64,000 nt of DNA, taken from the sequence record NC_055712.1. One strand, 5' to 3'. This stretch comes from Escherichia phage phT4A. The position numbers were made by a program, and so were the translations under genes. This document shows positions 1-57,493 of this stretch, piece by piece. Numbering within the stretch: the first letter of the stretch is position 1; every line of letters begins with the position of its first letter. The notes under the pieces are model-generated. The model ran no database searches. It was given only the letters and a program-made list of their open reading frames with translations, and had not been told where the DNA came from.

Positions 1-436
1 AGGATTCGGCTTTATGGGTATCACGATGTTAACAGTATTCATCAACTCTGGTTTGTCAATGACTCATAACGAGACAATCATTGATATTCTGAGAAACTAC
101 CGTTTCGATAGTGGTTATCCTAAGTTCTGGCCTGATCGCATTGCGAGTATGGACGGTAACGGAAACCAACAATTCGACCTGGTTACTGGTGAACCTCTGT
201 ACACCGCACACCCGCGAGCGGGGGAACCTTTTGATGTACCTCCGGAATATGACATTGAAGAAAAACCGCTTAACGGTGTTCTTCCTTCTGCGCGACGGTT
301 CGATCAAAGCCCGTTGTTCGATTGCTCAGGCGTTAAATATTCACAGTTCCGTAATTTGGTGGATAAACGACTGAAAGATGATGCAGGAAACCCACGTGAT
401 CCAAATCCTCCATCACAGATTAAGGTAGGAAATTAA
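1..436 (+). CDS. 7: baseplate wedge protein gp7, C-terminal fragment (5' end outside window)
   Basis: ORF runs from the window edge to a stop at 434-436, immediately before the gp8 start; assigned by T4 synteny 7-8-9-10-11-12. Confidence 0.6.
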   Translation, partial: GFGFMGITMLTVFINSGLSMTHNETIIDILRNYRFDSGYPKFWPDRIASMDGNGNQQFDLVTGEPLYTAHPRAGEPFDVPPEYDIEEKPLNGVLPSARRFDQSPLFDCSGVKYSQFRNLVDKRLKDDAGNPRDPNPPSQIKVGN

Positions 437-1429: not shown

Positions 1430-1438
1430 GGAAAAACA

Positions 1439-2302
1439 ATGGCTTACCAAACAGCAAAAAAACTAATTGATGTCGGTGAAATCGGCAACCCATCAACAGG
1501 CGACCCGCTTTATGATGGTGGTGTTAAACTGAACGAAATGATCACCAACGTTTATAATGCGTTTGGTGATGTGCGTATGCTGTCTGCAAACGAAGGTGTC
1601 GGTAACATGGTGATCCATGCTACCGGATACTATCAGAAACTACCACGCACTTACTATTCAAGCACACCGATCGAACTGGGTTCCTTGCATGACATGGATA
1701 CTTCAACAGGTTCGATTACCGTTGTTCTTCCTTCTGGTAAGGTTGGAGAAGGTTGCTACTTCATAAATAGTACGGGTAGTGTCTCTGTTGATCGTCCTAT
1801 CGCGTTTCGTCCTCAAGTTGGCGATACTATCGCGGGGGTTGCAGACCAGTTGTATATCACGTCACCTTACACCTTTGTAAAAATCTGGTGTACCAAAAAA
1901 GAAGGTGCGGTAACAACATGGGATTATTCTGTAGAATCTATGTTCGGTTCTAAAACGATGCCTGTTGACACTACGGCGCTTGTACTGAAAGCAAACCCGA
2001 CTGCTATTCCTATGTTCGGATATAGCGAATTTAGCGGGGCTAAGGTGCTCGTATACGCAGAAAACGTAGCTGGTACAGTTACCAAAATGGCAGAAGTTTT
2101 AATGACCGTGGATCGTGTAAACAAAACGATTTATTCAACGGAATACGCTATTTTGAAAAACAGTGAAGATGAAATGTTTACATTAAACTTTACTGTCGGT
2201 GCTGGTGATGTCGTATACGCTAACGTGCAAGCGATCAAAGAAGATCGAATTAAATTCACGATTAAAGCAATCGATACGATTAAATCAGGGATCGCGTCAT
2301 GA
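1439..2302 (+). CDS. 9: baseplate wedge protein gp9 (long tail fibre attachment)
   Basis: 287 aa; N-terminus KKLIDxGEIGNxSTGD and IHATGYYQK match T4 gp9; synteny. Confidence 0.93.
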   Translation: MAYQTAKKLIDVGEIGNPSTGDPLYDGGVKLNEMITNVYNAFGDVRMLSANEGVGNMVIHATGYYQKLPRTYYSSTPIELGSLHDMDTSTGSITVVLPSGKVGEGCYFINSTGSVSVDRPIAFRPQVGDTIAGVADQLYITSPYTFVKIWCTKKEGAVTTWDYSVESMFGSKTMPVDTTALVLKANPTAIPMFGYSEFSGAKVLVYAENVAGTVTKMAEVLMTVDRVNKTIYSTEYAILKNSEDEMFTLNFTVGAGDVVYANVQAIKEDRIKFTIKAIDTIKSGIAS

Positions 2303-4116: not shown

Positions 4117-4784
4117 TGGCTTACAACAATATTTCAAAAACAAGGGAGGGCGCTCGCGTCCTCTCTAAAGAAGCAGATTACTTACAGTATGATACTTATG
4201 GTAAGTTGCCTCTGATCGGCGGTAAACGTTCGATCGGCGAACCAAACATTGACCAAACAAAACGCGGTGTTCTGTATGGAAACGTACAATCCGCAATTGA
4301 TGACCTGTATACGCTTATCGAGCAAATCCCGATTAACGGCGTTGTTACCATGACTGAGGATGCACCTCCAATCGCCGTACAGCAGGTTGAGAGCGTTTCT
4401 TTTGATGGTATTGTACAGAACATCGATTCAGACCAAGAACAGGCTGTAGTTCACGTATACGGCTTCCCTTTCATCTTTGATAATGGGACTAACGCCGCAA
4501 CCGTTTGTGAAACTGCATACAACAAATTTACTGAATTCGTTGCAGCGGAAAAATATTTCGCAGAAGTTAACCGCAAAGGTGTTGATGGTACGATCCTTGA
4601 ATGTCGATTTATTGATAGTGTTCCGCACCCGGCAACAAATATCTCAGAAAACGGTATTCGTCAAATCGGAACTATCGACGTAGCCGCAAAAAATGGCTAT
4701 GGTTCATGGGTTAAGTTGGGTTCTGGTTTCTTACCTGATGTTACTCCGCAAGTAACCGTGTATTACTTCAAACGAATTGCATAA
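4116..4784 (+). CDS. 11: baseplate wedge protein gp11
   Basis: 222 aa (T4 gp11 219 aa); position between 10 and 12; start overlaps gp10 stop. Confidence 0.85.
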   Translation: MAYNNISKTREGARVLSKEADYLQYDTYGKLPLIGGKRSIGEPNIDQTKRGVLYGNVQSAIDDLYTLIEQIPINGVVTMTEDAPPIAVQQVESVSFDGIVQNIDSDQEQAVVHVYGFPFIFDNGTNAATVCETAYNKFTEFVAAEKYFAEVNRKGVDGTILECRFIDSVPHPATNISENGIRQIGTIDVAAKNGYGSWVKLGSGFLPDVTPQVTVYYFKRIA

Positions 4785-4793
4785 GGATAACAC

Positions 4794-6179
4794 ATGAGTA
4801 ACAATACAATCAACCACGTAAGTGATAAATCCATTTACGTGACATTTGACCCAACAGGTACTGATTGGCCTGATACCATAACCAACGTACAAGATGCGTT
4901 GGAAAAAATAGGTAGTTGGGCGCGTACTGATACTGGGCTTCCTATCGCAACAACTTCTGTTCGTGGTATTGCTCAGATCGCAACCGAAGCTGATATTGAC
5001 GCTGGCACGGATAACACTAAGATTGTTACTCCGAAACTGTTAGCATATCGTATGCAGAACCCTAAAGCATCACAAACCGTATGGGGTTATACGAAGTATT
5101 CGACTGATGCGGAATCTACAACCGTAACTAACGATGCATCGTCTATTACTCCGCGATCTCTGAACTATGTGTTCAATAACCGTAAAGGTACAGAATCGGT
5201 TTGGGGTTCTTCTAAAATTGCTACCACTGCACAGGCGGTTGCTGGTACAGATAACACTGTAACTATGACTCCGCTTAAAGTCAAGCAAGCGATCGCGTCC
5301 CTGGTTCCTGTTCAGTCAAGCGCGACCGAAAGCTCGCAAGGTTTGGTACAACTGGCAACAGTTGCACAGGTTCAGGCTGGTACGATCCGTGAAGGGTATG
5401 CAATTTCACCTTATACGTTTATTCGTTTAACTGCAACTGAAAGCAACCTGGGCGTTATTCGTATCGCATCACAGGCAGAAGCAAACGCGGGTACTGATGA
5501 CACCAAAGCGATTACTGCGAAAAAATTAATCAATACCCGTGCAACTGGATCTCAGTTCGGTGTTGTCAAATTAGCAACAACTGTTGGTTATGTGGCAAAC
5601 ACTGCACTTTCTTCAAACGCTGCTGTATTACCTAGTGATCGAAATGCGGTAATTAACGGTTCTCTTTATGAGAATAGCGCAATATATAACAACAAATATC
5701 AGACGTGGACAGATCTTGATTGGCATTTCCCAGTAGGTGCTATTGTCATGACTGGTTTTCAGACTGACCACGGTAGTTTGTATATTTGTGATGGTCGCTC
5801 ACTGAATAAAAATAACTATCCGTTACTTTTTGAGCGTATAGGTTATACATTTGGTGGTGGCGGTGATTGGTTTAACCTTCCAGATTGTCGAGGCGTTGCA
5901 GTACGTGGTCATGACCGTGGACGCGGATTAAACCCTAATCGTGGGTATGGTACATATGAAGGCGATATGTTGGGCTGGCACGAACACCCATTACAGCTTA
6001 TCTACCAGAACGGCGGTAATATTCCGAAATGGCAAGCAGTTTATGAACTTAAAAGCGCCGAGAAAAACGATCAGAGTGCTCGCGTGTTTGATTCTTCCAT
6101 AACTAAAGCTACTGGTGTGGGCGGAGAAGAAACCCGCATGAAAAACATCGCATTAAACTACGTAATTCGCGTATTATAA
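4794..6179 (+). CDS. 12: short tail fibre protein gp12
   Basis: 461 aa; MSNNT..HVS, SVRGIAQIATEA, ESSQGLVQLATVAQ, REGYAISPYTF repeats and C-terminal NIALNYVIRV match T4 gp12. Confidence 0.93.
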   Translation: MSNNTINHVSDKSIYVTFDPTGTDWPDTITNVQDALEKIGSWARTDTGLPIATTSVRGIAQIATEADIDAGTDNTKIVTPKLLAYRMQNPKASQTVWGYTKYSTDAESTTVTNDASSITPRSLNYVFNNRKGTESVWGSSKIATTAQAVAGTDNTVTMTPLKVKQAIASLVPVQSSATESSQGLVQLATVAQVQAGTIREGYAISPYTFIRLTATESNLGVIRIASQAEANAGTDDTKAITAKKLINTRATGSQFGVVKLATTVGYVANTALSSNAAVLPSDRNAVINGSLYENSAIYNNKYQTWTDLDWHFPVGAIVMTGFQTDHGSLYICDGRSLNKNNYPLLFERIGYTFGGGGDWFNLPDCRGVAVRGHDRGRGLNPNRGYGTYEGDMLGWHEHPLQLIYQNGGNIPKWQAVYELKSAEKNDQSARVFDSSITKATGVGGEETRMKNIALNYVIRVL

Positions 6180-38208: not shown

Positions 38209-39056
38209 GTTATTATGGTGTGATCCCATACACAGGAAACAAGCAAAAGCTACTTCCTGAACTGTTCAAATTATTTCCAGACAGAAACAGCTATATGCGA
38301 TTCATCGACTGTTTTTGTGGTGGTTTGAGTGTGTCGCTAAACGTCCCTAAACCCGTTCTAAGCAACGATTACGATCGGACGTTGATTGATATGTATAAGC
38401 GCCTTCAAATGCTTCCTGACCTCTCTCCTGTGCGAGAATTGATTAAACAGCATGGTCTGGGTAAGAACGAGAAAGAAGCGTATCTCACATTTCGTGATGC
38501 GTATAATAAGAACAAGGATCCTCTATGGCTCTACGTTCTGATCCTTCATTCGTTTAGTAATGTTAATCGAACCAACGATAAAGGCGATTTTAACGCCAAT
38601 TTTGGTTGTAGAACGTTGAATGATTCTACCGTTAAACGGTTTGAACACTTCAAAAATAATGTTCGGGGGATTGAATTCTCTAGCGCATCGTTTAAGGATC
38701 TTGATATCTGTTTGAATGATTTTGTGTACTGCGATCCGCCGTACCTGATCACTGATGCAGTTTATAACAAGTTCTGGAACGAAGAACGCGAGCATGAATT
38801 ATATGATTTTCTCGATAATTTAAACTCTGATGGTATCAAGTTTGGTTTATCAAACGTGACACATCATGCAGGAAAGCAAAATGATATCCTGATCGAGTGG
38901 ATGCAAAAATATAATGTGCATAACCTCGATAAAAAGTATCTGTTAGGCCAGCATACTGATTCTTACGAACAAAATAAAACGCAAGAAGTCTACGTGTGCA
39001 ACTACCAGAAACGCGACGTAAATACATACCCTGAAACACTGGATGACTTAATGTAA
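38205..39056 (+). CDS. dam: DNA adenine methyltransferase (Dam, GATC-specific family)
   Basis: 283 aa; YTGNKQKLLPEL, FxDCFCGGLSVSLN, DPPYLIT, KFGLSNV match T4 Dam. Confidence 0.93.
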   Translation: MSYYGVIPYTGNKQKLLPELFKLFPDRNSYMRFIDCFCGGLSVSLNVPKPVLSNDYDRTLIDMYKRLQMLPDLSPVRELIKQHGLGKNEKEAYLTFRDAYNKNKDPLWLYVLILHSFSNVNRTNDKGDFNANFGCRTLNDSTVKRFEHFKNNVRGIEFSSASFKDLDICLNDFVYCDPPYLITDAVYNKFWNEEREHELYDFLDNLNSDGIKFGLSNVTHHAGKQNDILIEWMQKYNVHNLDKKYLLGQHTDSYEQNKTQEVYVCNYQKRDVNTYPETLDDLM

Positions 39057-39064
39057 GGTAACAT

Positions 39065-39340
39065 ATGTTTAAGATTTTTGGTTATATCCCTTCTGTTTAC
39101 AATTGCGCTCCATGCCTGAATTCTAAACGTCTCCTGGACGCAAAACGAAAAGAATATGAGTTTGTTTCTGTAGCCGATGAAAAAGACGCAGACGGCAAAC
39201 CGATCCTGAATGAAACGGTCATTTCTGAACTCGAAAGCCTGTTAGGTACTCGTAGACTGACCATGCCTCAAATTTTCCACGATGGTAAGCACATCGGCGG
39301 CTTTGACCAACTGCGTGAGTACGTTCGCACGTTGGGATAA
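39065..39340 (+). CDS. nrdC: glutaredoxin/thioredoxin NrdC-like
   Basis: 91 aa; CxxC active site (CAPC), LTMPQIFHDGKHIGGFDQLREY matches T4 NrdC. Confidence 0.88.
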   Translation: MFKIFGYIPSVYNCAPCLNSKRLLDAKRKEYEFVSVADEKDADGKPILNETVISELESLLGTRRLTMPQIFHDGKHIGGFDQLREYVRTLG

Positions 39341-39371
39341 ATATTAACACCTTTATTTGATTGGTGTTATT

Positions 39372-39854
39372 ATGCTCACTAAACGTATTACTAAGAAAGA
39401 TTATCCATCCATTAAACAAGCTCTTTTTGAACAGCAAAACGGCTTGTGCGCGTTATGTGGTCGCCCTTTAGAGGGTGACCTTGAAAAGCATCACCTTGAC
39501 CATGATCATGCTCTATCTGGCTCTAATGCCGGACGTGTGCGCGGCCTCCTATGTAACCTATGCAACGGTACAGAAGGTATTGTAAAGCACAAATTTAATC
39601 GTTCTGGTCTGGTTTCCCGTGATGTTGATTACATCGAATGGCTAGAAAGCCTGGTAGCATACCTCAAACGCGACTATTCACAAAACCGTATGCACGACAA
39701 ATTTATACCCGATAAGGTTAAATGGTTTACACGCCTGACTAAATCGGATATGATAGCCGAAATGATTTCTATGGGCTTTGAGTACTCAGAAACTGAGGAT
39801 CGCAAGGCTTTAGCAAAGAGCTATAGAAGACAATTAATGAAGGCAACCAAATGA
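39372..39854 (+). CDS. 49: endonuclease VII (Holliday junction resolvase gp49)
   Basis: ATG at 39372 (track start 39357 is a TTG); QNGxCxxCxRxL, HLDHDH, (K/R)VRGLLCNLCN, KHKFNRSGL, DYxEWLExL, GFEY match T4 gp49. Confidence 0.93.
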   Translation: MLTKRITKKDYPSIKQALFEQQNGLCALCGRPLEGDLEKHHLDHDHALSGSNAGRVRGLLCNLCNGTEGIVKHKFNRSGLVSRDVDYIEWLESLVAYLKRDYSQNRMHDKFIPDKVKWFTRLTKSDMIAEMISMGFEYSETEDRKALAKSYRRQLMKATK

Positions 39855-40113
39855 AAGTAGAAAAANNNNNNNNNNNNNNNNNNNNNNNNNNNNNNNNNNN
39901 NNNNNNNNNNNNNNNNNNNNNNNNNNNNNNNNNNNNNNNNNNNNNNNNNNNNNNNNNNNNNNNNNAAAACGTAGGTTATGGACAGGATATACCCTGGAGG
40001 CTTTACAGGCCGACCCAGAACGTTCTAAGCTACTTCCTTACATTGATGTTCTGATTGATGGTAAGTATGAAAAAGATTTGCCAACAGAAAAAGCCGTTTC
40101 GCGGTTCAGATAA
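39851..40113 (+). CDS. nrdG: ORF interrupted by scaffold gap; the C-terminal 46 codons resemble the NrdG (anaerobic RNR activase) C-terminus
   Basis: MKVEK start overlaps the gp49 stop; after the gap ..WTGYTLEAL...VLIDGKYEKDL resembles E. coli NrdG ..WTGYKLDEL...VLVDGKF.QDL. Confidence 0.45.
39866..39965. other. scaffold gap (100 N)
   Basis: Exactly 100 N; true size unknown. Confidence 0.99.
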
Positions 40114-40166
40114 TCAACGTATGATCGAATTCGCAATAAAAATTCGATAGAAATTAAAAATATTGC

Positions 40167-40194
40167 TTGACCTAATGTGTAACTATGGTAATCT
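40167..40194 (+). promoter_or_regulatory. candidate early/middle promoter (TTGACC-N16-TAATCT, overlapping a TGCTT MotA-box-like motif)
   Basis: ATTGCTTGACC ... TAATCT about 45 nt upstream of the 40240 ATG. Confidence 0.35.
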
Positions 40195-40239
40195 TACCAC
40201 ATCGTAAATGACGATTAACTTTAATTGAGAGATAATATC

Positions 40240-41208
40240 ATGATCCTGAATTTCAAAACCCGTAAAGAAGCGCGTAACTACTGCTGGAAGTGGAACATTC
40301 CCCTGAAAACCATCCGTAATACAGGGCGCGGTTCTTGCCCGTGGACAGTTCAAGCAAATGAACTGAAAACGTTCGTGGTTGGTAAAACTTACAAACTGGT
40401 TGACCGTGAAGGGTTTACTACCAATTCACACGGCGGATCTAACACCGCAAACACTATCCAGGCGAGACAGATCGAAAAATTCCTGAATAACGAGGTAAAA
40501 ATTATCTCGAAAACCAATTCAGATACTTTCAAAATTGAGCATACTCCGGAAATGACTTTTAGCTCTCTGCGTTCGTGGGAAGCTCGTTATTTCGTCGAAG
40601 TTGGCGCGGCTCCGGTTAAGAAAACGAAAGCTAAACCGAAAAAAGCCAACGTTACGGCTCCGGTCGCACCTGTTGCACCAGTAACAGCAGTAACAGCAGA
40701 TCTTGATCAAATGCTTGATGGTGGTTCGGCAATGTCGGTTGAACTGGATCCGACTAAATTTGTTGAAGGCCGTTCGTATGTTCTGGTTAAACCGCAGCAA
40801 TTTAAAAATCGTTGTGGCGCTAACCACGGGATCAAATCATATACCGATGAACACAGTAATGGTGTATACACCGTTTACCATACGACTTCGCTCGGTCATC
40901 ATCAATTGAGCAAAACGGTAGAAACCATTGATTCCCAGACCGGAAAAGTTGGTTACTATCTGCTTGATTCTGAACGTTCGTTCTTCCGTGAACTGGCGAC
41001 AGGAATTGTTGATGAACCTGTTAGCGTTTCCGGTAATAGCGCTATCGCTATCAATGTAGACGAAGCGGCTAAGAAAGAAGAAATCGCAAAAGCAATGACA
41101 CAGCTTGAAGAAGCGGTTAAGGCCCATGATGACGCTCTTCAAAATCTGCGTACTGCTTCCGACCTGGTTCGCAAAGCTGCTCGAAAAGTAGCAGAAGTAA
41201 GCAAGTAA
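40240..41208 (+). CDS. hypothetical protein with internal tandem-duplicated domain, Pro/Ala/Val-rich linker and C-terminal coiled coil
   Basis: 322 aa from the ATG at 40240; repeats ..FVVGKTYKLVDREGF..SHGGSN.. and ..FVEGRSYVLVKPQQF..ANHG..; linker APVAPVAPVTAVTA. Confidence 0.55.
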   Translation: MILNFKTRKEARNYCWKWNIPLKTIRNTGRGSCPWTVQANELKTFVVGKTYKLVDREGFTTNSHGGSNTANTIQARQIEKFLNNEVKIISKTNSDTFKIEHTPEMTFSSLRSWEARYFVEVGAAPVKKTKAKPKKANVTAPVAPVAPVTAVTADLDQMLDGGSAMSVELDPTKFVEGRSYVLVKPQQFKNRCGANHGIKSYTDEHSNGVYTVYHTTSLGHHQLSKTVETIDSQTGKVGYYLLDSERSFFRELATGIVDEPVSVSGNSAIAINVDEAAKKEEIAKAMTQLEEAVKAHDDALQNLRTASDLVRKAARKVAEVSK

Positions 41209-45500: not shown

Positions 45501-46309
45501 ATACTCGCGGCGTTGTAGCTAACGTTAAATTTCAGGCTCCTGAAATTCAGGCAACTAGCAAAGTGTCTTTAGGTAGTGATAGCGTTATTTCTGCAAGCGG
45601 TTCTAACCTTTTACTGGGGGTGAACAGTAAGACAACGCAGATCAATACATCCGATGCAGGTAACATTGTAGCGGCTGAATCTGGGAACTCTTACAAAGTC
45701 TTTACTGAGAAGAACGCGCAAACCTTGCTGAATCCTACGTATGTACGTAAAGCAGGTGATACGATGTCTGGACGGTTGACAATCAACAACAGTTCTCTTA
45801 TCATCGCAGGTCAAGCGGCTTGGTCAACTCAGGATGCAGTAAACGAAGCATCACGGGGATACTGGACAGCAGAAATTACCTCTGCTGCACAATACAACTT
45901 GCTTCCTGGTTATGCGGTTCCGGTTCTCGAACCAGATCCGATTAACCCAGATATTATGATTGTAACCCGTTATACCTACGTTAAAGCACCTGGTACGTTA
46001 ACTCAGTTTGGTAACGGAACCGCATACACTTATCAGATTTGGGCACCTCGTCCGACCTCTGGTACTGGTGTTAACGCGTTGGCGCAATCCTTCTGGATCC
46101 GTCAAATGAATCCAATTACAGGTAAATTTGATGAATGGGGCCGCATGTATACGAGCAACAACCCGCCTACTGCTGGTGAAATTGGGGCAACGTCTGCTGT
46201 TGGTACTACGGTTAAAAACATGACTGTTACTGATTGGATCAAAGTTGGTAATGTTAAGATTTACCCAGATCCGGTTACTCAGACAGTTAAATTTGAGTGG
46301 GTGGCATAA
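42536..46309 (+). CDS. 34: long tail fibre proximal subunit gp34
   Basis: 1257 aa from the ATG at 42536; N-terminus GLDAAGEK(V/I)INV..ADRNT.SDGVNVD, QQYDPTRGY, TATETRRG(I/L)A repeats and C-terminal PDPVTQTVKFEWV match T4 gp34. Confidence 0.95.
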   Translation: MVAKSFRARSGLDAAGEKVINVGKADRNTLSDGVNVDFFNEFNGIQQYDPTRGYSQDMAIIYARRIWYAKQNIASPAGAFDESKWIATRNDPKWVYSNVTTPDGSIIDSGSYIMADGRFTELLYLLPDNPTEGDVITFKDCGGLVGVNSILVKSNTRQIRLRAVQSAQYRLTHPYMIATFIYNGNVWRVSEALDNRDSEIVNATGTGSFQLQSGMTVFRNSATGKITLQLPKYANDGDVITTYDADKMNSINVAVLQIYPGSGHTISDGASTGVTSVTSQKSGFGMFIFDAQNSQWKVYDADNRVRLRRIYSDLNAVPNDYVFVTANPSGAVPNVTVTLPTDVADGDRVYVSLYMMGKNQNCTIKVKDGTTDKIRTNKNMMQFPQRKDYPPDDWFSVTSLAFNAGSDYLPYIEFSYLKATKEWVVANYRPIVERVDATNRTRTGVIALAAQAEVNKNLEDNPNDETAITPMTLANKTATETRRGIARLATTAEVNKLSTDTYLDDVIVTPKKLNERTATETRRGLAEIATQAETNGSTDDITIVTPKKLHNRIASPTLTGILALVATGGTANTNTDRAQAGTGIYDHSDYQKAVTPKTLREYKATELQSGAVWLANLNEVINGTVASSNIPTVVTPEMLHKKTSTDARIGLIEIATQAETNAGTDYTRAVTPKTLNDRTATEGLTGIIAIATTAEVSAGTVTNKAIVPSKLKGYLDDTSHITVATADGLTQSGTIWTTVNIGIQSATETQRGTLRVATQSETNAGTLDTVFVTPKKLHAKKATESAEGIIQVATAAETTAGTVANKAVSPKNLKNTIQVDTSWQATDLVRGTVKLSKGAGTWSGNDVAGSTLPDDGYAAVGVAVSPYELNLTLKHYLPIGAKAVDADKLDNLDSSQFIRRDVAQTVNGALTLTQTTTVQANINSTADASFRVMNVNGDLNVGDGSSMGKLRLNGGSANDWSIQASAASGRIAMISTGNTSTVHLSVYNDTRGVVANVKFQAPEIQATSKVSLGSDSVISASGSNLLLGVNSKTTQINTSDAGNIVAAESGNSYKVFTEKNAQTLLNPTYVRKAGDTMSGRLTINNSSLIIAGQAAWSTQDAVNEASRGYWTAEITSAAQYNLLPGYAVPVLEPDPINPDIMIVTRYTYVKAPGTLTQFGNGTAYTYQIWAPRPTSGTGVNALAQSFWIRQMNPITGKFDEWGRMYTSNNPPTAGEIGATSAVGTTVKNMTVTDWIKVGNVKIYPDPVTQTVKFEWVA

Positions 46310-47245
46310 TGTCAAACTTAATGGCGGGGTTCGGCCCCGATTTTGTAGAAACGCAAATTCTATCGGAAACAAACAGCGTAACTTACAGAATAACCGCAAA
46401 GGCAACACATCCCAATGCGGTTCCTAATCAGTATGAGTTTACACTAAATCAAAAGGCGGTAGGGACACCGCCTAGTGTTGGGATCAACGTATGGAGAATT
46501 AACAATGCTGTAGTTGATCCAATTAAAACCTTCACATTATCGAATGATAATTCAGCAACTGCAAACAAAGCGTTTGTTGAATATATGGATGCTCAACCTT
46601 CTGGGCTGTATTTGATAATGACTAACGGTGAATACAAAACAAGCCAAATCGTTGATGATTGGTTTGCTAAAAACAGATCCGTTATGTGGCAAGGCGCTGA
46701 TTTCGCTCAGAGATTCCCAAATTCTGCATATGTTGCATTGTATGGGGCTTCAAAATCTCGTATACTGATTGAATCGTTTTACGCGAACGATGGAGTTTTA
46801 AAAGAAGATTCACGCGCATCAATCGATCTTGTCTATGATAACGTTGGTGATGTTGGGCGAACTGGTGTACCTTTCCGATCTGTTGAAGATACGGAAGAAT
46901 ACAATTCAACCAATGGATCTGAATATAAAGTATATCCTGTTGCAAACCCAGTGATCTCTAAACTGGCTGATTATGGTATGGCTCCTGGATTAGCTATGAT
47001 GATTGCTGGTGATTTTTACGCCAGCAAAGCATTATTGGATGCTGGATCAACAACAAGGGTTACTGTTCGATGGTTTACGGGTACTGCTCAAACTTCATCA
47101 TCGGTGATTGAAGTTCCTGCAAATAAACCTGATGAGTGGTTACGATTTGAACAGTTCTATACGATCCCTAGTGGTTGTGATGGATTTAACGTTGCTGTAT
47201 CTCGTTATCCTAAACCCGCTACGGATAGTTTATCTGCGTATCCGT
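46309..47245 (+). CDS. 35: long tail fibre hinge protein gp35 (3' end lost in scaffold gap), assigned by position
   Basis: ATG overlaps the gp34 stop; 312 codons before the gap (T4 gp35 is 372 aa); the track's 1640-aa ORF is an artefact of reading through N. Confidence 0.55.
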
Positions 47246-47345
47246 NNNNNNNNNNNNNNNNNNNNNNNNNNNNNNNNNNNNNNNNNNNNNNNNNNNNNNN
47301 NNNNNNNNNNNNNNNNNNNNNNNNNNNNNNNNNNNNNNNNNNNNN
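47246..47345. other. scaffold gap (100 N)
   Basis: Exactly 100 N; probably hides the gp35 3' end, possibly gp36, and the first codons of the distal fibre gene. Confidence 0.99.
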
Positions 47346-50300
47346 TTTAGCAAAAATTCAATTCCTACGTAGCACAGTTGCGGGGAAAACACCTACTACA
47401 AGTCAGCTTGCAGATGGTGAACTGGCGATCAACATGGCTGATTATGCCATTTACACGAAAAATGGTTCTTCGATCGTTCAGTTAGCGGGTAAAGGTATCC
47501 CAGAAACAAATACCAAAAAATTAACAGTAAATGGGCCTAGTGCTCTTAATGATACCGTTACCGTAGCGGAAGGTAAAACTATTACTTTCACCAACGCGGA
47601 TTTGAGCGGGGGTATGGTTCGTCATATCACTGGTAAAAACGCGCTTAATGATGGTTGGTACATCGGTTCTGGTGGTGAGAGCAATAAAGGGTTTTTAGAA
47701 ATCGGTACAATTGATGACGGTGATGAAGAGATCCGTTTCGTTTCCCGTGGTTCTGGTGATACTGTTCGTCGTACTCTGAAACTTATTGATTCCGGTGGTA
47801 ACACTCGCGTACCAGGTAACATCTATATTGATGAAGCTATGGGCGGTGGTGGTTCTGCTTTTATTTCAAAAAACAAAGCATATTTCGGTGCTGGCGGTGC
47901 TGATATCTATATGCGTAACACTGCTGGCGGTGCGACAAATCAGTTAACGATCACTGATGGCGGTGAATTGCTGTTTCAAGCAAAACCTGTATACTGGGAC
48001 GGTCGTAAACCGACTTTAACCGAATTGGGGATCGGGCGGGTTGAAAACGCGCGTCAAATGCAGCAAGACAATTGGCCTATAACTACAGGTAATGAAACCC
48101 GATGGGTTAAAGTTGCTCTTTTAAAAGATCCTGGCTCAGGTCATAGTCGCTTGCAACTGATGGTGACTAACGGCGGTAACTATGGTTCTACACGCGGATC
48201 GTTCGATTTTATCGATTGTTCTGCTCGTAGTATGCCTTCAACATTAACGGCTGCAAATATTCGTTCTTATCTGCAAATTCGTCGATTGGGCGATCCGGCA
48301 ATGGATGACACTAACCAGATGCGTTATAGTTTGGTTCGCACATCCGAAGGTTTGGAATTGTGGTTTACTCAAAGATCGTTCATCGGTAGTACAAAAATTG
48401 CTCTGTTATCTACGGCTGGCGTGACTGAATATTATATTCCTAGTGGATATACATCACAAACAACCGCTCCGGATGGTTTGATCGAGAGTAAGCCTATTCG
48501 TATCTATGACGAAATGAACAAACCTAGCCTTGACGATGGTACTGATGGTATTCTGTCTGTTGCTAAAGGTGGTACAGGCGCAAGTACAGCGGCTGCTGCT
48601 CGCACAAACTTAGGTTTGGGTACTGCTGCAACCCGTGATGTTGGTACAGGTTCCGGACAAGTAATGCTTGTTGGTGCTTACGGTTTAGGCGGTAAGGGTA
48701 CATCATATAGCATCGCAAATGCTCGCGACTTCCTGAAACAACTGCGTACTGATGGTTCTCAGTTCATGCGAAATACGCTTGGTACTGACATTAACTATGG
48801 TATGGGCGCAAGTTTTTATAGTTCCGTATCAGATGTTCATGCAGTGATCTCGGTTGATTGGAATACTGGTCGCGTTAAAGTTGGTGCAACTAATGATACT
48901 AACCTTAACTCAGATACAGGAAGAATCAACTTCCAGGAACTGTACGGTACTGCATTTAAACCGACTCCGGATGACGTAGGGGCTGTTGCACGTGCTGGTG
49001 ATACGATGTCTGGTGATCTGACGATCTCTAAAGTGTCGCCTGGTTTCCATTTGAATGCTGAGAGCGGAAACTCCGTAATTTGGTTTAAGTATAAAGGGGT
49101 TGAAAGTGGTGCTGTGTGGGCGTTGCCTAATACTGCCTCTTCTGGTGAAGTTCGCATTCGTGCCAGAACGTCGGGCGGAACGACTGGGGGCGAATTCTCA
49201 TTTAAATCAGACGGTACATTTACATCACCTGGTAATATCAATATTACTAGCGGCGCTTTCAACGGTAAAAGTGTCAATACTCAGTATGCGAACTTTAATA
49301 ACACAAGTTCAACAACAACCGAACAAACCGTTTCTATTAGTGGTTCGCAGCACACTCCTCTGTTACTGAATAGACCGACTAACTCGAACTTGTCTATCGG
49401 GTTTAAACTTTCCGGAATGAACATGAAACGTTTGGGTATCGATGTAAACGGTGATATTCGTTACGGTGAAGCCGAAAACCAGACACAAAACGCATGGCTG
49501 TTGACTTCGGATACCATAAACAGATGGAGTGTTAACTTCGGGCGTGATATTAACGTTGCAGGTGTAGTTAATTCAACTGGTGGATTTACTGGCCCTGTTA
49601 CTGCATATGATTTGACCGGGGTAACTCAGGATCTTGATGCTTTAACATTGAACAATGCCGAACCAGGACATATTAAAGTTTATTCGTGCCGTAGTATGGG
49701 TGGCGGTGATAACATCACCAATAAACCTTCCGGCGTAGGTGGTAACTTTATTGTTATCGTTGAATGTCTCCGTAAAGTCGGCGATACTGATTACACTAAC
49801 CGTCAAGTATTACGCGCATCGGACAATAAACGCAGTTGGGAACGTTGGTTTACTGTTAGCGGTACTGCTAAAGCCTGGACACCGTGGAGAATGAACGTTG
49901 TTAGCGGAAACGATGACGATGTATCATTTAAATCTGTTACCACAACTACAGGAAACCTGAACAGTGGAAACGATCTGATTGTTGCGAACAACGCTCGCGT
50001 AGGTGGCAACTTAGGGTTAGGTGGTGCTTCTTCCACGACATACACTGATAAAGGTGTTGTGATTGGTAACGGTAGTGCGCTGTTAGAATCCACTGATGGT
50101 CGCATGATTATTGGTAGTTCTGGTGCTGGTCGTGCTGTTGAATTGCGTCCTGGTGGCCCAACTCAAACCAACAACGGGATCAAAGTGACTGCTACCTCTG
50201 GAAGTGGTGGTGATACTGCGATCGAGTATGCGCAAGGGGTGAAAATCCGGGCAAATAACGGTGGTGCGTTGATTATTTCTGCTAAAGCTGGACAAACGAT

Positions 50301-51219
50301 TTATCTACGTCCTCAAGGAGATACATCCAGCACAAACGAAACAAGGATTGATTCTAGTGGTAACATGATAGTTAATGGTAATATCAGTGCAAACGGAAAT
50401 ATGTCTGCTACTGGTACGTTAACTGTTTCTGGTGCTACTACATTAAACAACACATTAACGGTTAATAATGTAGGGCCAATCGAGAAACGGGGGATCAGGA
50501 CGTATACAGAAGGTTCTGTTACTGTCAACGAAACCGACGGCATTACGATGTTTGGTAATGGCACAATTCATGGCACAATGCGATTAGTTGAGAGAGTGAA
50601 TAATACTACTTTCATCGGTCTGCAAACTTCCATTAATGACACTACAAACGGTTGGTTTGAATTCCACCACACAGGAAAATTCAAATCAAACAATATCGAA
50701 GCCTCTGGTAATATTGTTAGTTTGACTGGTTCCATTGGTGCTGTTGGTGCATTGACTGTAACGGCTCCTTCTTCTGATAACGGTACTGACCATATTTGGT
50801 TCCGTAACTCTGATGGATCTGAACGTGGTGTTATCTATATGCCAGGCAATGCTAATATTGGCGGTTTCCGCGTTCGTGGTGTGGAATGGCAATTTGATGG
50901 CGGTGCTAGTCAGTTTATCGGCCCTGGTGCTCGTTGGCGTATTCACCCTGATGGTAATATTCAGGCTGATGTTTTTAGCGGTTATCTGAATAACTACATC
51001 AATGATCGGTTTAACGCGTGTGCTCAGTGGGTTCGTACTGGTGCTCAACAGGACTTTGGTCAGATCGGTCGTCCTGCTCCTGGTTTAACAGTTCCTGCTG
51101 GTTGGGTTTTAGTTGGTCTTAACGCCAACGGTAACGAAGCTAACCAGAACATGCAGTTAATCGGTGGTCGTTTGCAGGTATGGAAGAATAACGTTCAATG
51201 GGTTGATTCTGCAACTTGA
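47346..51219 (+). CDS. 37: long tail fibre distal subunit, gp37-type (fibre A; 5' end in gap)
   Basis: Begins (truncated) LAKIQFLRSTVAGKTPT.SQLADGELAINM, matching the T4 gp37 N-terminus MATLKQIQFKRS..AGTRP...LAEGELAINL; about 1290 aa; no C-terminal chaperone domain; followed by a gp38-like chaperone. Confidence 0.8.
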
Positions 51220-51226
51220 TAAAATA

Positions 51227-51240
51227 GGGGCTTCGGCCCC
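51227..51240 (+). terminator. GC hairpin (ggggc-ttcg-gcccc) after fibre A, weak T tract
   Basis: Same hairpin type as other terminators in the window but followed by ttcattc. Confidence 0.35.
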
Positions 51241-51261
51241 TTCATTCTTAAAGGTAAAATA

Positions 51262-51663
51262 ATGATTGTTAAACAAATGAAAGGTATTCGCTGGCATCAT
51301 AATTTTGAAGGTGGTGCTTACTATCGTGATTGTAATGACAAGTGCTGGTATGAATTTCGTAATTCTTTGGATAAAAATTCCCATATCATTATAGTTGATG
51401 CTAAAACCAATAAAATCATTAACTATTATAACGGTGATGATCCTACGATGATTGGATTGTTTGCTGATAAAGAAATGATTCTTAATGTGTATCAGCTATC
51501 AGAATTTCCTGTTAATGACTGGGGAGAATTCTCTAAGCGAGAATTTAAGTTCGAAGATGATAAGGTAGTCATGACGAAAGATGTTGAACTTCCGAAATCT
51601 CGAACAAAAGAAGATATCATGGCAGATTTGATAAAACTTCAAAAAGAGCTAGAGGTAATGTAA
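51262..51663 (+). CDS. 38: tail fibre assembly chaperone, gp38-like
   Basis: 133 aa directly after fibre A; pattern similarity to the T4 gp38 chaperone (..IIIVDAKTNKIINYY.. vs ..YAVVFDERTQDWIY..; ..FPVNDWGEF.. vs ..FDEPGEFDIW..). Confidence 0.5.
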   Translation: MIVKQMKGIRWHHNFEGGAYYRDCNDKCWYEFRNSLDKNSHIIIVDAKTNKIINYYNGDDPTMIGLFADKEMILNVYQLSEFPVNDWGEFSKREFKFEDDKVVMTKDVELPKSRTKEDIMADLIKLQKELEVM

Positions 51664-51669
51664 TTTCTA

Positions 51670-51747
51670 AGGCTACCTATATGGTAGCCTTTTTGTTGTA
51701 TGCTAAATATACCTATAGCAACCTAAGAAGAGTCTTATAAAATGGCT
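51670..51747 (+). repeat. intergenic element copy 1: terminator hairpin (aggctacc...ggtagcct + T5) + AT box + ATGGCT start
   Basis: About 90% identical to 56445-56513. Confidence 0.8.
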
Positions 51748-51847
51748 NNNNNNNNNNNNNNNNNNNNNNNNNNNNNNNNNNNNNNNNNNNNNNNNNNNNN
51801 NNNNNNNNNNNNNNNNNNNNNNNNNNNNNNNNNNNNNNNNNNNNNNN
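51748..51847. other. scaffold gap (100 N)
   Basis: Exactly 100 N; flanks share ggct, compatible with a direct join giving ATG GCT GAT TTA (MADL...). Confidence 0.99.
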
Positions 51848-54800
51848 GGCTGATTTAGCAAAAATTCAATTCCTACGTAGCACAGTTACGGGGAAAACAC
51901 CTACTACAAGTCAGCTTGCAGATGGTGAACTGGCGATCAACATGGCTGATTATGCCATTTACACGAAAAATGGTTCTTCGATCGTTCAGTTAGCGGGTAA
52001 AGGTATCCCAGAAACAAATACCAAAAAATTAACAGTTGATGGGCCTAGTGCTCTTAATGATACCGTTACCGTAGCGGAAGGTAAAACTATTACTTTCACC
52101 AACGAGGATTTAAGTGGTGGAATAACTCGTCATATCGTTGGCAAATGCGCCACTAATGATGGTTGGTACATCGGTTCCGGTGGTACAAGCAACAATGGTA
52201 TTCTTGAAATCGGTACTATTGATGACGGCGTTGAAACCATCCAGATCGTACAGCGCGGCGCAGGCAACGTTGAAGCCAGAAAGTTAGTCTTGCTTGATGG
52301 TTCGGGTAATACGAATCTTCCTGGTGATTTAAGATTAACCACCAATAAAGCTGTTAAAATTTCGAATGGAAGCACTCTTACACTAGAAATGGGCGTAGGT
52401 GCTAACGATGTATACATTAAAAACCTGAAAGGCTCTGGCGTTCTTCAATTAACCAATGATAGTAATCTGTCGTTCAGAAATTACCAGGTTTATTATGCCA
52501 TGAGTGGAAAAGGCCCTGGTAAAGATGGTACTCTTCTGACTAATGTAGAAAACGAGCGCCAACTTAAACAGGATAATTTCCCTATAACTACAGGCAACGA
52601 AGCTCGGTGGACTAAAGTTGCTCTTTTAGTAGACCCCGGCTCAGGGCCGAGTCGCTTGCAACTGATGGTGACGAACGGCGGTAACTTTGGTTCTACGCGT
52701 GGCTCTATCGACTTTATCGATTGTAGCGCTAGAAACTTTCCCGCAACATTAACAAGCAGTAACATTCGTTCTTATCTGCAAATTCGTCGAATCGGCGATC
52801 CTGGACTTGATGGCACAAACCAATTACGTTATAGTCTAGTTCGTACCTCTGAGGGTTTAGAACTGTGGTTTACACAACGCGCGTTTATTAGTGGTGTTAA
52901 AGTTGCTCTGCTGTCTATTGATGGTAATACTAAATATTATCTGCCTACTGGTTACACGACTACTTCAACTGCTCCAGAAGGTTTAGTTGAGAGTACGGCT
53001 ATTCGTATCTATGATGAGGTAAACAAGCCTAATCTCGACGATGGTACTGATGGTATTCTGTCTATTGCTAAAGGTGGTACAGGTGCAAGTACAGTAGATG
53101 CCGCTCGCACAAACTTAGGTTTGGGTACGGCTGCAACCCGTGATGTTGGTACAGGTTCCGGACAAGTAATGCTTGTTGGTGCTTACGGTTTAGGCGGTAA
53201 GGGTAAATCCTATAGTAGTTCAACCTCTCGCGATTACCTGAAACAACTGCGTGCTGATGGTTCTCAGTTCATGCGAAATACGCTTGGTACTGAAATTAAC
53301 TATGGTATGGGCGCAAGTTTTTATAGTTCCGTATCAGATGTTCATGCGGTGATCTCGGTCGATTGGAATACTGGACGCGTTAAAGTTGGTGCGACTAATG
53401 ATGCTAACTTGAACTCAGATACCGGAAAAATCAGCTCTCAGGAACTGTACGGTACTGCATTTAAACCAACTCCGGATGACGTAGGGGCTGTTGCTCGTAC
53501 TGGTGATACAATGTCTGGTGATTTGCTTATCAGTAAAGAGTCACCTGGGTTATTTTTGAATGCCACTAATGATACCGGAAACTCTGTAATTTGGTTTAGA
53601 AACAAAGGAGTTGAGACAGGTGCTGTATGGGCAATACCTAACACCGAGTCTTCGGGTGAGGTTCGAATTCGTGCTAGAACGACTGCTGGGGTCACAGGCG
53701 GCGAGTTCAAATTTAAATCTGACGGTACATTTACATCACCTGGTGATGTAAATATCACCAGCGGTGCTTTCAACGGTAAAAGTATCAACACTCAGTATGC
53801 GAACTTTAATAACACAAGTTCAACCACAACCGAACAAACCGTTACTATTAGTGGTTCACAGCACACTCCGCTGTTACTGGATAGACCGACTAACGCGAAC
53901 TTGTCTATCGGGTTTAAACTTTCCGGAATGAACATGAAACGTTTGGGTATTGATGTAAACGGTGATATTCATTACGGTGAAGCAGAAAACCAGACAAACA
54001 ACGCATGGCTGTTGACTTCGGATACAGTAAACAGATGGGTTGTTAACTTTGGTCGTGATATTAACGTTGCTGGTGTGGTTAATTCGACTGGTGGATTTGC
54101 TGGCCCTGTCGCAGCGTATGATTTGGCTGATGTTAAACTAGATCTTAATGATTTAACGCTAACTGGCGCTACCCCAGGCCATGTTAAAGTTTATTCATGC
54201 CCTAGTATGGGTGGCGGTAATAACATCACCAATAAACCTTCTGGCGTCGGTGGTAACTTTATTGTTATTGTTGAATGTCTCCGTAAAATAAACGATACCG
54301 ATTACACTAACCGTCAAGTATTACGCACATCTGATAGTAAACGCAGTTGGGAACGTTGGTTAACTGTTAGCGGTACTTCTAAAATCTGGACACCGTGGCG
54401 TGTTAATATTGTTAATGGGAATGATGACGATGTATCATTTAAATCCGTTACCACGACTACAGGAAACCTGAACAGCGGAAATGATTTGATTGTTGCTAAC
54501 AACGCTCGCGTAGGTGGTAACTTAGGGTTAGGTGGTGCTTCTTCAACGAAATACGCTGATAAAGGTGTTGTGATTGGCAAAGGTAGTGCTCTGTTAGAAA
54601 CTACTGATGGTCGTGTGATTATTGGTAGTTCTGGTGGTGGTAATGCTGTTGAATTGCGTCCCGGTGGCCCAACTCAAACCAACAACAGGATCAAAGTAAC
54701 TGCTACCTCTGGAAGTGGTGGTGATACTGCGATCGAGTATGAACAAGGCGCTAAAATTCGTGCTAATAATGGTGGTGATTTGATTGTTTCTGCTAAAGCA

Positions 54801-55823
54801 GGTCAAGCAATTTATCTGCGACCGCAAGGTGATGCATCCAGCACAAACGAAACCCGTATTGATGCAAACGGTAGTATCACGATTAACGGCAATATTAACG
54901 CCAACGGTACATTAACTTGTACTGGTGGTGCTGTTAACGGAGACTTGACTGTATCAGGAAAAGTAGATATCACTGGAAACCAGTTAAAAACTACATCGCT
55001 CTGGGTTACTGGAGATGCTGCTGTTAACGGTGTTTTAACTGTTGATGGAAGGGCTAGGTTTAATCAAGAGTTCATTGTATCAACTTCGGTTAACGTCCAG
55101 AACACTGGTAACAGTCATTTGGTCTTCCGTAAAGCTGATGGTACAGAAAAAGGACTTATTTGGGCTGATGAGCCTGGTAGCGTTAGTATAAGAGCAGGTG
55201 GTGTCTCTGGGCCAACGTGGAATTTCTGGAACAGTGGTTCTTGCCAATTCCCAGGTGCTATTAGTAACTTTAATGGTGTTAATAGTACTACTAATTACCC
55301 TGGCGGCGGAAGTGGCGCGTATTTAAATACCGCTGGCTTAACAAGTAGATTTAGTAATGGTGCTTATGTTTCCTTATACTTCCAAGAATATGTAGGAAAT
55401 TATCACCAGGCTATTCTTAATGTTAACGGCTATGGTCGAGATGACAATTTCTATTTCAGGGCCGGCGGTGACTTCTTCTGTACTCGTAACGGTTCTTTTG
55501 ATAACGTTGAGATTCGTTCTGACCGTAGAGCCAAATCGGATATCAAAGTTATTGAAAATGCTTTAGAAAAGGTTGAAACATTATCTGGTAATACTTATGA
55601 ACTTCATAACACTTCTGGCGGTACTACTCGTTCTGCTGGGTTGATTGCTCAGGAAGTTCAAGAAATCTTACCGGAAGCAGTTACTCAAGATAATGAAGAA
55701 GATGGCGGTATGCTTCGTCTGAATTATAACTCAGTAATTGCACTTCTTGTTGAATCTGTTAAAGAGCTTTCTGCCGAAGTTAAAAATCTTAAAGCAGAAA
55801 TTGAAGAACTTAAATCTAAATAA
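51848..55823 (+). CDS. second gp37-type distal tail fibre (fibre B) with C-terminal S74-type intramolecular chaperone domain
   Basis: Reads (M)ADLAKIQFLRSTVTGKTPT... from the gap edge; co-linear with fibre A at 70-95% aa identity over about 1100 aa, then a different tip. Confidence 0.8.
55518..55823 (+). other. C-terminal intramolecular chaperone (peptidase S74-like) domain of fibre B
   Basis: SDRRAKSDIK.IENALEKVETLSG.TYEL......RSAGLIAQEVQEILPEAV...........LNYNSVIALLVESVKEL matches the T5 pb1 / endosialidase CIMCD consensus. Confidence 0.8.
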
Positions 55824-55826
55824 TGC

Positions 55827-55850
55827 ATGGGGCTTCGGCCCCATCTTTTA
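55827..55850 (+). terminator. hairpin (atggggc-ttcg-gccccat) after fibre B
   Basis: 7-bp stem, ttcg loop, then ctttt. Confidence 0.5.
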
Positions 55851-55862
55851 GGAGAAATAACT

Positions 55863-56390
55863 ATGGCAGTAACAGGGCCGTGGGTCGGAAGTTCAGCAAA
55901 GGCTGAAACTGGTGAGTCGTGGATGGCTCAAGCTGGGGCCAAATTAAGAATAGGGACACCGTTTTGGATGTCTAATATGATTGGACAAAGCGTATTCCAT
56001 TTAATTTTCAGAATTAACTATGCACAGGGTTCTTCTGGTGATCCATCTAGATATAGAGGATTCTTTAAAAGAGGGTTAGCAGTAAGTGTAGGAGATTCTG
56101 CTAACCAACCGACGCTGAATGCGTTCCCTGGCGGAGATGTGGGTTCACTAGTAGCTATTACAAATATCAAAGGCGACCCTTATTGCCTTTCTATTTGGAA
56201 TGGTCAAGATAGGCGAGTTAAAGTTTCTATTTTTAGAAGCGATGGAGCCGAACAATACGATGTTTATTTTAGCGGAACTACTATGGCTGACGGGTGGAGA
56301 AGGTATAAATGCGAAGATGCTGGAGGTCTCAATGGGTATTTTGAGGCTAGAATGGATAACCAGTTTGGTGCTTTATTAGAATATGTTTGA
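55863..56390 (+). CDS. hypothetical protein in the gp38 position downstream of fibre B (possible fibre accessory/adhesin)
   Basis: 175 aa from the ATG at 55863 with AGGAG RBS; Gly/Ser/Trp-rich; no family recognised. Confidence 0.5.
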   Translation: MAVTGPWVGSSAKAETGESWMAQAGAKLRIGTPFWMSNMIGQSVFHLIFRINYAQGSSGDPSRYRGFFKRGLAVSVGDSANQPTLNAFPGGDVGSLVAITNIKGDPYCLSIWNGQDRRVKVSIFRSDGAEQYDVYFSGTTMADGWRRYKCEDAGGLNGYFEARMDNQFGALLEYV

Positions 56391-56444
56391 TAGGTAAACC
56401 AACAAATTCACCTCATAATATTAAATAGATTAAAAGGCTACCAT

Positions 56445-56513
56445 ACAGGTAGCCTTTTTGTTGTATCCTAAATATACGTATAGTAACCTAAGAAGAGTCT
56501 TATAAAAATGGCT
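56445..56513 (+). repeat. intergenic element copy 2 (terminator hairpin + AT box + ATGGCT holin start)
   Basis: About 90% identical to 51670-51747. Confidence 0.8.
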
Positions 56514-56742
56514 GAGAGAAATCCCGTAGATAAACTAGCCTTATTTGATCGGGTAATCTCGTTTGTGATGGGTGTGAAAACATGGAAACAATTGCTGATA
56601 AAAATAATTCTAATAATGGTTATGTTTCTTATGGTAGTAACTTGGTACAAATGGACTGATATATTCCCGATGATAAAAGGTGCCCTTGTAGTCGATACAA
56701 GGGCTATCGAAATGGAAAGAACTGAAAAGTTTAATCAATCCG
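56508..56742 (+). other. t: 5' portion of holin gene t, duplicated on the left side of a scaffold gap (probable unmerged contig overlap)
   Basis: 56506-56742 is identical base-for-base to 56843-57079. Confidence 0.85.
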
Positions 56743-56842
56743 NNNNNNNNNNNNNNNNNNNNNNNNNNNNNNNNNNNNNNNNNNNNNNNNNNNNNNNNNN
56801 NNNNNNNNNNNNNNNNNNNNNNNNNNNNNNNNNNNNNNNNNN
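56743..56842. other. scaffold gap (100 N), probably spurious
   Basis: Flanked by a 237-bp exact overlap. Confidence 0.95.
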
Positions 56843-56845
56843 AAA

Positions 56846-57493
56846 ATGGCTGAGAGAAATCCCGTAGATAAACTAGCCTTATTTGATCGGGTAATCTCGT
56901 TTGTGATGGGTGTGAAAACATGGAAACAATTGCTGATAAAAATAATTCTAATAATGGTTATGTTTCTTATGGTAGTAACTTGGTACAAATGGACTGATAT
57001 ATTCCCGATGATAAAAGGTGCCCTTGTAGTCGATACAAGGGCTATCGAAATGGAAAGAACTGAAAAGTTTAATCAATCCGCGTTGGAACAGTTGAGCATA
57101 GTTCATCTTACTTCCAACGCGGATTTTTCAGCGGTATTGGCATTCAGACCAAAGAATATAAACTATTTTGTTGACATTGTAGAATATCAGGGAAAACTAC
57201 CATCCCAGATCGATCCTAAAAACCTCGGCGGTTATCCGATCGATAAAACATCCGAAGAATACACGAATCATATAAATGGCTTGTATTATTCATCCACTAA
57301 AGCAAGTTCCTACCTACCGACACGTGGTTTTGTGCCAGTAGCTTATACTTTTAGTTGCCCTTATTTTAATCTTGATAACTACTATTCTGGATCGGTTTTG
57401 ATGGAATGGTACGCAAAGCGGCCTAATATACCAGATATGAAGCTAAACATCATATGTGGACAGGCCGCGCGTATTTTAGGTCGAGTGAGGTGA
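56846..57493 (+). CDS. t: holin T (lysis/lysis-inhibition)
   Basis: 215 aa; N-terminal TM segment, ALEQL.IVH..S.ADFSAV..FRPKN.NYFVDI..Y.GKLPS, LGGYP.DKT, SCPYFNLDN.Y.G, ICxQAARILGR match the T4 gpt holin. Confidence 0.93.
   Translation: MAERNPVDKLALFDRVISFVMGVKTWKQLLIKIILIMVMFLMVVTWYKWTDIFPMIKGALVVDTRAIEMERTEKFNQSALEQLSIVHLTSNADFSAVLAFRPKNINYFVDIVEYQGKLPSQIDPKNLGGYPIDKTSEEYTNHINGLYYSSTKASSYLPTRGFVPVAYTFSCPYFNLDNYYSGSVLMEWYAKRPNIPDMKLNIICGQAARILGRVR

Follow-up and report, generated by a model that had tools for sequence, protein, structure and literature searches.

Organization of the fibre locus

The window analysed here is a 64,000-nucleotide stretch of the record of Escherichia phage phT4A (NC_055712.1), and on sequence grounds we assign it to a KP15-like Klebsiella Slopekvirus (Straboviridae). 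Matches to its fibre locus come from 266 phage records, almost all of them from Klebsiella, with 88% identity to KP15 and 94–95% to P60_7 and K14-2, and stretches elsewhere in the window are 99.9% identical to those of deposited Slopekviruses. Along the fibre locus the genes are collinear with the gp34-35-36-37-38-t order of KP15, with gp36 and the 3′ end of gp35 falling in a scaffold gap.

The gene that concerns us most is a gene 37 homologue for the distal long-tail-fibre subunit (positions 51,848–55,823, plus strand), which we call fibre B. It matches PHROG 10316 ('tail fiber protein') at E=0 and shares 86–92% DNA identity with KP15 gp37. The open reading frame as listed runs without interruption from 51,942 to 55,823 on the plus strand and encodes 1293 residues, beginning at an internal methionine (Met33, position 51,942). 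The gene start itself lies at the edge of a run of 100 Ns (51,748–51,847), in which the first two bases of the ATG were lost: 'ATGGCT' stands before the run and 'GGCTGATTTAGC' follows it from 51,848. The DNA after the gap reads 'GGCTGATTTAGCAAAA...', and its translation from 51,848, MADLAKIQFLRSTV..., matches the orthologues. With the start placed at this edge, the full protein has about 1325 residues (139.9 kDa), and the serine of an SDRRAK motif near its end is residue 1225. Ser1225 and Lys1230 of the full-length protein are S1193 and K1198 in the listed frame. Codon 1193 of that frame (55,518–55,520, tct) encodes the serine of SDRRAK and the stop codon occupies 55,821–55,823, so that the interval beginning at 55,518 delimits exactly the last 101 residues.

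Directly 3′ of the fibre B stop lies a GC-rich hairpin with a UUCG loop (55,827–55,844, plus strand; ATGGGGCTTCGGCCCCAT), at a position equivalent to that of an annotated terminator in KP15. An identical hairpin core with the same loop (GGGGCTTCGGCCCC) follows the stop codons of both gene 37 alleles present in the window, at 51,226–51,241 and 55,827–55,844, in each case before the partner gene. The partner of fibre B is a gene 38 homologue encoding a 175-residue tail-fibre adhesin (55,863–56,390, plus strand); its frame is listed from 55,827, upstream of an ATG at 55,863 that is preceded by a ribosome-binding site. The conserved gp37-gp38-t block ends with the holin gene t (56,846–57,493, plus strand; Pfam Phage_holin_T, E=3e-52).

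The gp38 homologue matches Pfam Gp38_N (PF21721) at E=6.3e-23 and PHROG 1121 ('tail fiber adhesin') at E=4e-47. Its residues 1–44 form the gp37-docking domain and align with residues 1–45 of gp38 from Salmonella phage S16 (6f45_D, E=3.9e-8), with all three tryptophans kept (W7, W20 and W35). Beyond this domain the proteins differ. Neither a PF05268 match in Pfam nor glycine runs in an alignment with RB69 and RB51 gp38 could be found in the protein encoded here, whereas RB69 gp38 matches PF05268 at 6e-83, and the C-terminal 130 residues are free of the glycine-rich motifs of T2, T6 and S16 gp38. The distal domain falls in an existing PHROG family. Judged by sequence, this gp38 is a variant that keeps the docking domain and carries a distal domain different from the polyglycine sandwich of S16.

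The C-terminal S74 domain of fibre B

The sequence-only reading of this DNA had assigned the last roughly 100 residues of fibre B to an S74/CIMCD intramolecular chaperone (IMC) domain, and profile searches bear this out. The Pfam profile PF13884 (Peptidase_S74, 'chaperone of endosialidase') aligns over its full length (positions 1–58 of 58) with residues 1193–1248 and scores 56.2 bits where the cut-off is 22 (E=4.3e-15). All three motifs quoted in that reading, SDRRAK, LIAQEVQEILPEAV and LNYNSVIALLVESVKEL, occur in the translation. Among solved structures, gp37 of S16 (6f45_A) is the closest relative; a five-sequence profile finds it at E=7.7e-38 and the sequence alone at E=2e-15. In this alignment NVEIR|SDRRAK of fibre B is in register with DLNVS|SDRRIK of S16 gp37, which places the serine at the experimentally defined autocleavage site of S16 (PDB 6F45). 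The profile also matches the autoproteolytic domain of myelin regulatory factor (MYRF, 7dc3; E=1e-9), which has ADLRAK in place of SDRRAK, with the lysines aligned.

To describe conservation across the family we used an alignment of the fibre B domain with 78 database homologues (n=79), all 78 of which carry PF13884. The aspartate and the lysine five residues after the serine are present in all 79 sequences and the serine in 78, and so the Ser–Lys dyad, which the sequence-only reading had singled out for a conservation check, is kept across the family. An S74 match together with this Ser/Asp/Lys conservation is, at the level of sequence, far beyond chance. The predicted autocleavage site is the Arg^Ser bond of NVEIR^SDRRAK (55,515–55,520, plus strand; aligned with DLNVS^SDRRIKK of S16), with the serine as predicted nucleophile and the lysine (55,533–55,535, plus strand; aligned with the MYRF lysine) as predicted general base of the dyad. 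The domain occupies the extreme C-terminus, the last 101 of about 1325 residues of a gp37-type fibre, and this C-terminus is common to about 20 PHROG tail-fibre families, several of them named 'long tail fiber protein distal subunit'. By analogy with the family, fibre B would be trimeric.

Kinship with the T5 and endosialidase domains, also part of the earlier proposal, holds at the level of the Pfam family. Searches of PDB sequences at E≤0.01, with the single sequence or the five-sequence profile, gave no T5 pb1 or endosialidase match and reached only S16 gp37, one further fibre and MYRF; it is through Pfam and the fold search alone that fibre B is linked to the endosialidase IMC. An AlphaFold2 monomer model of the last 230 residues has pLDDT 84–98 over the IMC and is poor upstream of it (pLDDT 41–68), as expected when a single chain of an intertwined trimer is modelled. 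Using Foldseek against the PDB, the sole confident matches of this model were six chains of 3gw6, the endosialidase IMC, with probabilities of 0.98–0.99 and with an E-value of about 1e-3 and a TM score of 0.26, values that reflect the poor superposition of a monomer model of an intertwined trimer. We regard this modelled fold match as supportive rather than decisive. Together with the sequence matches, it leads us to conclude that 55,518–55,820 (plus strand) encodes a genuine C-terminal IMC (MEROPS/Pfam S74) of the gp37 distal long-tail-fibre subunit, 101 residues and 11.1 kDa in size, whose release by autocleavage is predicted.

The residue before the predicted scissile bond is an arginine, which departs from the Tyr/Phe found in the majority of the family alignment. 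Since cleavage of fibre B is proposed by homology, this departure could suggest that the IMC-like domain stays uncleaved in the mature fibre and serves as a structural or receptor-binding knob. We consider such a knob very unlikely: serine, aspartate and lysine are intact in fibre B; arginine likewise precedes the serine in gp37 of RB69 and RB51, and in the related Tequatrovirus fPS phages the site, as deduced from an alignment with S16, reads DVYIR^SDGRLK (PMC7917993). An uncleaved IMC would, moreover, occlude the tip on which Gp38_N docks in S16.

Two gene 37 alleles joined across scaffold gaps

Upstream of fibre B the window carries a second gene 37 allele, 'fibre A' (47,346–51,219, plus strand), with a different C-terminal module and no IMC. 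It is followed by its own partner, a gene for a Tfa-like tail-fibre assembly chaperone (51,262–51,663, plus strand; PHROG 136 'tail fiber assembly protein', E=5.8e-13), in the same order as in RCIP0009. Fibres A and B have their first 1020 or so residues in common, with 85–92% DNA identity, and diverge completely thereafter, which defines a swappable module consisting of the last ~305 residues of gp37 and the downstream gene. Each of the two types is found alone in deposited Slopekviruses.

The block of fibre A is separated from that of fibre B by the N run at 51,748–51,847, one of four runs of exactly 100 N in the window (39,866–39,965, 47,246–47,345, 51,748–51,847 and 56,743–56,842) that look like scaffold gaps. 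The first block (47,346–51,747) extends from nucleotide 9 of gp37 through the Tfa-like gene to the 5′ region of the holin gene and the first 6 nucleotides of the holin, and is collinear with RCIP0009, whose gp37 has no S74 domain. The second (51,848–56,742) extends from nucleotide 3 of gp37 through gp38 to nucleotide 235 of the holin and is collinear with KP15. The block after it begins 3 nucleotides before the holin, and its positions 56,843–57,080 are a 100% copy of 56,505–56,742 (238 nucleotides, the holin start). An exact duplicate on the two sides of a gap indicates overlapping contig ends that were joined by Ns and left unmerged. At the gap 47,246–47,345, the 3′ end of gp35 and the whole of gp36 are missing (about 923 nucleotides in KP15 and RCIP0009).

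The same gap accounts for a frame at 46,297–51,219 that, at 1640 residues, could be taken for one giant fibre. We rejected this candidate: its first ~314 residues are gp35 (PHROG 1154), and this gp35 N-terminus is fused to allele A by a frame that stays open across the 100 Ns. At the leftmost gap, DNA in the region 39,000–40,800 (endonuclease VII, thioredoxin, Dam methylase and nrdD) was also inspected. To the left of the gap, several Slopekviruses match at 99.9% identity, and the flanks of 39,866–39,965 map to two separate places in them, which means that part of the reference is absent at that gap.

Taken literally, the window would describe one phage in which fibre A with its Tfa partner is followed by fibre B with gp38. 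Both cassettes consist of intact frames on one scaffold, gene 37 duplications have been reported in RB43 and Aeh1 (PMC3157838), and merging a four-nucleotide 'GGCT' overlap across the gap would restore an intact ATGGCTGAT... start of fibre B. If such a tandem were real, two kinds of long-fibre tip, and with them two receptor specificities, could be displayed: an intrinsic tip with a Tfa chaperone on fibre A, and an IMC with a gp38 adhesin on fibre B. We nevertheless find a genuine tandem very unlikely. All junctions lie inside 100-N gaps, the ends of the blocks match RCIP0009 (fibre A) and KP15 (fibre B) exactly, the holin start is repeated identically across the next gap, and gp36 is absent together with the 3′ end of gp35. 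In addition, among 50,697 phage genomes there is none in which tfa and the C-terminus of fibre B with gp38 are covered in one place; the best coverage of the tfa-to-gp38 span in deposited phages is 89% and begins after tfa.

The side-by-side order of fibres A and B is thus probably an artefact of scaffolding. On the simplest reading, the scaffolder placed two alternative alleles of the C-terminal gp37 module, each with its partner gene, end to end, and the source of the alleles could be a phage population that was mixed or polymorphic. The two-fibre look of the locus depends on scaffold gaps and is therefore to be read with caution. This question concerns the context of fibre B and not the identity of its terminal domain.

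A probable S16-type fibre tip in Slopekvirus

The gp37–gp38 tip of S16 provides the closest structural reference (PDB 6F45; Dunne et al. 2018, as described in PMC6851490 and PMC7917993). In S16, gp37 ends in an IMC of 113 residues that cleaves itself off, the cut falls within DLNVS^SDRRIKK, and removal of the IMC uncovers the docking surface for gp38 (PMC7917993); the S16 authors describe three tryptophans of gp38 as inserting into pockets on the gp37 tip (PMC6851490). In T2 and T6, likewise, C-terminal proteolytic cleavage of gp37 is followed by capping with gp38 (PMC3157838). The locus described here resembles that of S16 in that an S74 IMC ends gp37 at an S/R^SDRRxK site, a gp38 with a homologous docking domain follows, and the gene order is the same. 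It differs in the length of the IMC (101 residues here, 113 in S16), in a gp37 shaft before the cleavage site that has no detectable similarity to that of S16, and in gp38, which has 249 residues and a PGII sandwich in S16 and 175 residues with no polyglycine domain here.

Within Slopekvirus, the type species KP15 (KP15_234 and KP15_235 for gp37 and gp38) and phage AYL carry orthologues with gp34-35-36-37-38-t synteny, an S74 domain at the C-terminus of gp37 (E=1e-15) and a 175-residue Gp38_N adhesin of 91–94% identity. KP15 is nonetheless not the nearest relative, its fibre DNA being only 86–92% identical while P60_7 and K14-2 reach 94–95% over the whole locus. The last 127 residues of fibre B are 100% identical in Klebsiella phage AYL, and in a tblastn search they match 1929 phage records, including the annotated gp37 of RB69, RB51, Shf125875 and M1. 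Fibres of the T2/T6/RB69 type share the succession of a gp37 ending in S74, a gp38 with Gp38_N and the holin t, but their gp38 has the PF05268 glycine-rich domain that is absent here, and their IMCs are 44–47% identical to that of fibre B. The order gp37(S74)-gp38(Gp38_N)-holin is found in KP15, AYL, RB69 and RB51.

Carriers of other kinds share the terminal domain. The CIMCD of the K1F endosialidase (3GW6) and the IMC of T5-like L-shaped fibres belong to the same Pfam family, and the T5-like fibre of EscoHU1 aligns at 44% with the fibre B IMC, with Ser, Asp, Arg and Lys conserved; the KP15 orthologue has itself borne an annotation modelled on the L-shaped fibre of T5. The carriers in those cases are a tailspike and a siphovirus side fibre, in contrast to gp37 here, and we know of no separate adhesin that caps the tips of the K1F endosialidase or of T5-like fibres.

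T4 gp37, for its part, is homologous to fibre B in the N-terminal region and central shaft and occupies the same position in the locus. Its tip is intrinsically receptor-binding and has no IMC, and the gp38 of T4 is an unrelated protein, a chaperone (PMC6851490, PMC3157838). PDB sequence searches with the fibre B C-terminus did not reach a T4 gp37 tip structure. A search of the window for gp57A with an unverified T4 query gave no significant match, a result of little weight since the gene could be located beyond the window.

The sequence-only reading had called a self-chaperoned gp37 homologue a chimeric architecture, given that T4-type gp37 normally depends on the separate chaperones gp57A and gp38. 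Spelled out, this would be a rare chimera in which an IMC of T5/endosialidase type was grafted onto a T4-type gp37 that thereby became self-chaperoned and independent of gp38 and gp57A. The domain assignment of that reading stands: the S74 domain is real and common to T5-like fibres, and a Slopekvirus gp37 whose C-terminal ~305 residues can be exchanged together with the downstream gene does have a modular architecture. An unusual chimera that does without gp38 is not supported. An adhesin-type gene 38 homologue lies directly downstream of fibre B, where the chaperone was supposed to have been dispensed with, and the architecture taken as unusual recurs in identical layout in RB69, RB51, KP15 and AYL and belongs to the commoner type among T-even phages (PMC6851490, PMC3157838), T4 itself being the less common one (PMC6851490). 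We therefore give the chimera hardly any credence.

The best explanation, to which we assign a probability of about 90%, is a fibre of the T2/T6/S16/RB69 type and not of the T4 type, with an S74 IMC, predicted autocleavage and capping by gp38. Going by the family, three IMCs would first bring three gp37 chains into register and nucleate the trimeric β-helical tip upstream of them. Once the trimer has folded, the Ser1225/Lys1230 dyad is predicted from the sequence, and from the site demonstrated in S16, to cut the Arg–Ser bond, releasing an 11.1-kDa fragment and leaving a mature chain of 128.9 kDa. The exposed tip would then be capped by one gp38-type adhesin encoded by the next gene, as the Gp38_N match and the synteny suggest; docking would proceed via the three conserved tryptophans, and gp38 would carry the receptor-binding surface. 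What the window itself displays is the S74 domain with its dyad, the Gp38_N docking domain and the gene order; cleavage and capping would be as in the related fibres. Several observations count against this explanation: the ~200 residues upstream of the cleavage site have no sequence similarity to the docking region of S16 except in the last five or so, the monomer model of that part is poor, the match of the modelled IMC to 3gw6 has a low TM score and an E-value of only about 1e-3, and gp38 here has no PF05268 polyglycine receptor-binding domain.

The pairing of an IMC-ending gp37 with a gp38 adhesin is already known as the standard fibre of the T2/S16 type and is documented for Slopekvirus. 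An IMC has been described on the gp37 of most Slopekvirus members as well as on that of T2, T6 and S16 (bioRxiv 10.64898/2026.05.12.724579). The same preprint (Discussion, Fig. S25) appears to pair the IMC-bearing gp37 with a tail-fibre assembly protein and the variant without IMC with a gp38-like adhesin. Every locus that we tested shows the reverse, S74 with Gp38_N and the allele without S74 with a Tfa-like gene: S74 and Gp38_N occur together in KP15, AYL, RB69 and a P1-like Klebsiella element, and neither occurs in the alternative allele of RCIP0009.

Outside Slopekvirus, the fibre B tip with its IMC is most closely related to the end of a 1613-residue frame in Klebsiella variicola (GCA_022048045.1, contig DAGDAP010000006.1, positions 13–5431); 95% of the final 230 residues align, at 62% identity. 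Next to this frame on the 3′ side is a gene for a 178-residue Gp38_N protein, 30% identical to the gp38 of the window, followed by LydB and DarA_N genes, by which the context looks P1-like. IMC-tipped fibre ends and gp38-type adhesins appear to travel as one cassette between phages of unrelated types.

With a standard layout and an S74 domain identical to one in a deposited genome, the locus has little discovery value in itself, and its meaning lies in how such fibres are annotated and used. The mature fibre should be annotated as ending in ...NVEIR, with a predicted mass of 128.9 kDa instead of 139.9 kDa. For studies of host range and for engineering, the target would be the 175-residue gp38 and not the C-terminus of gp37.
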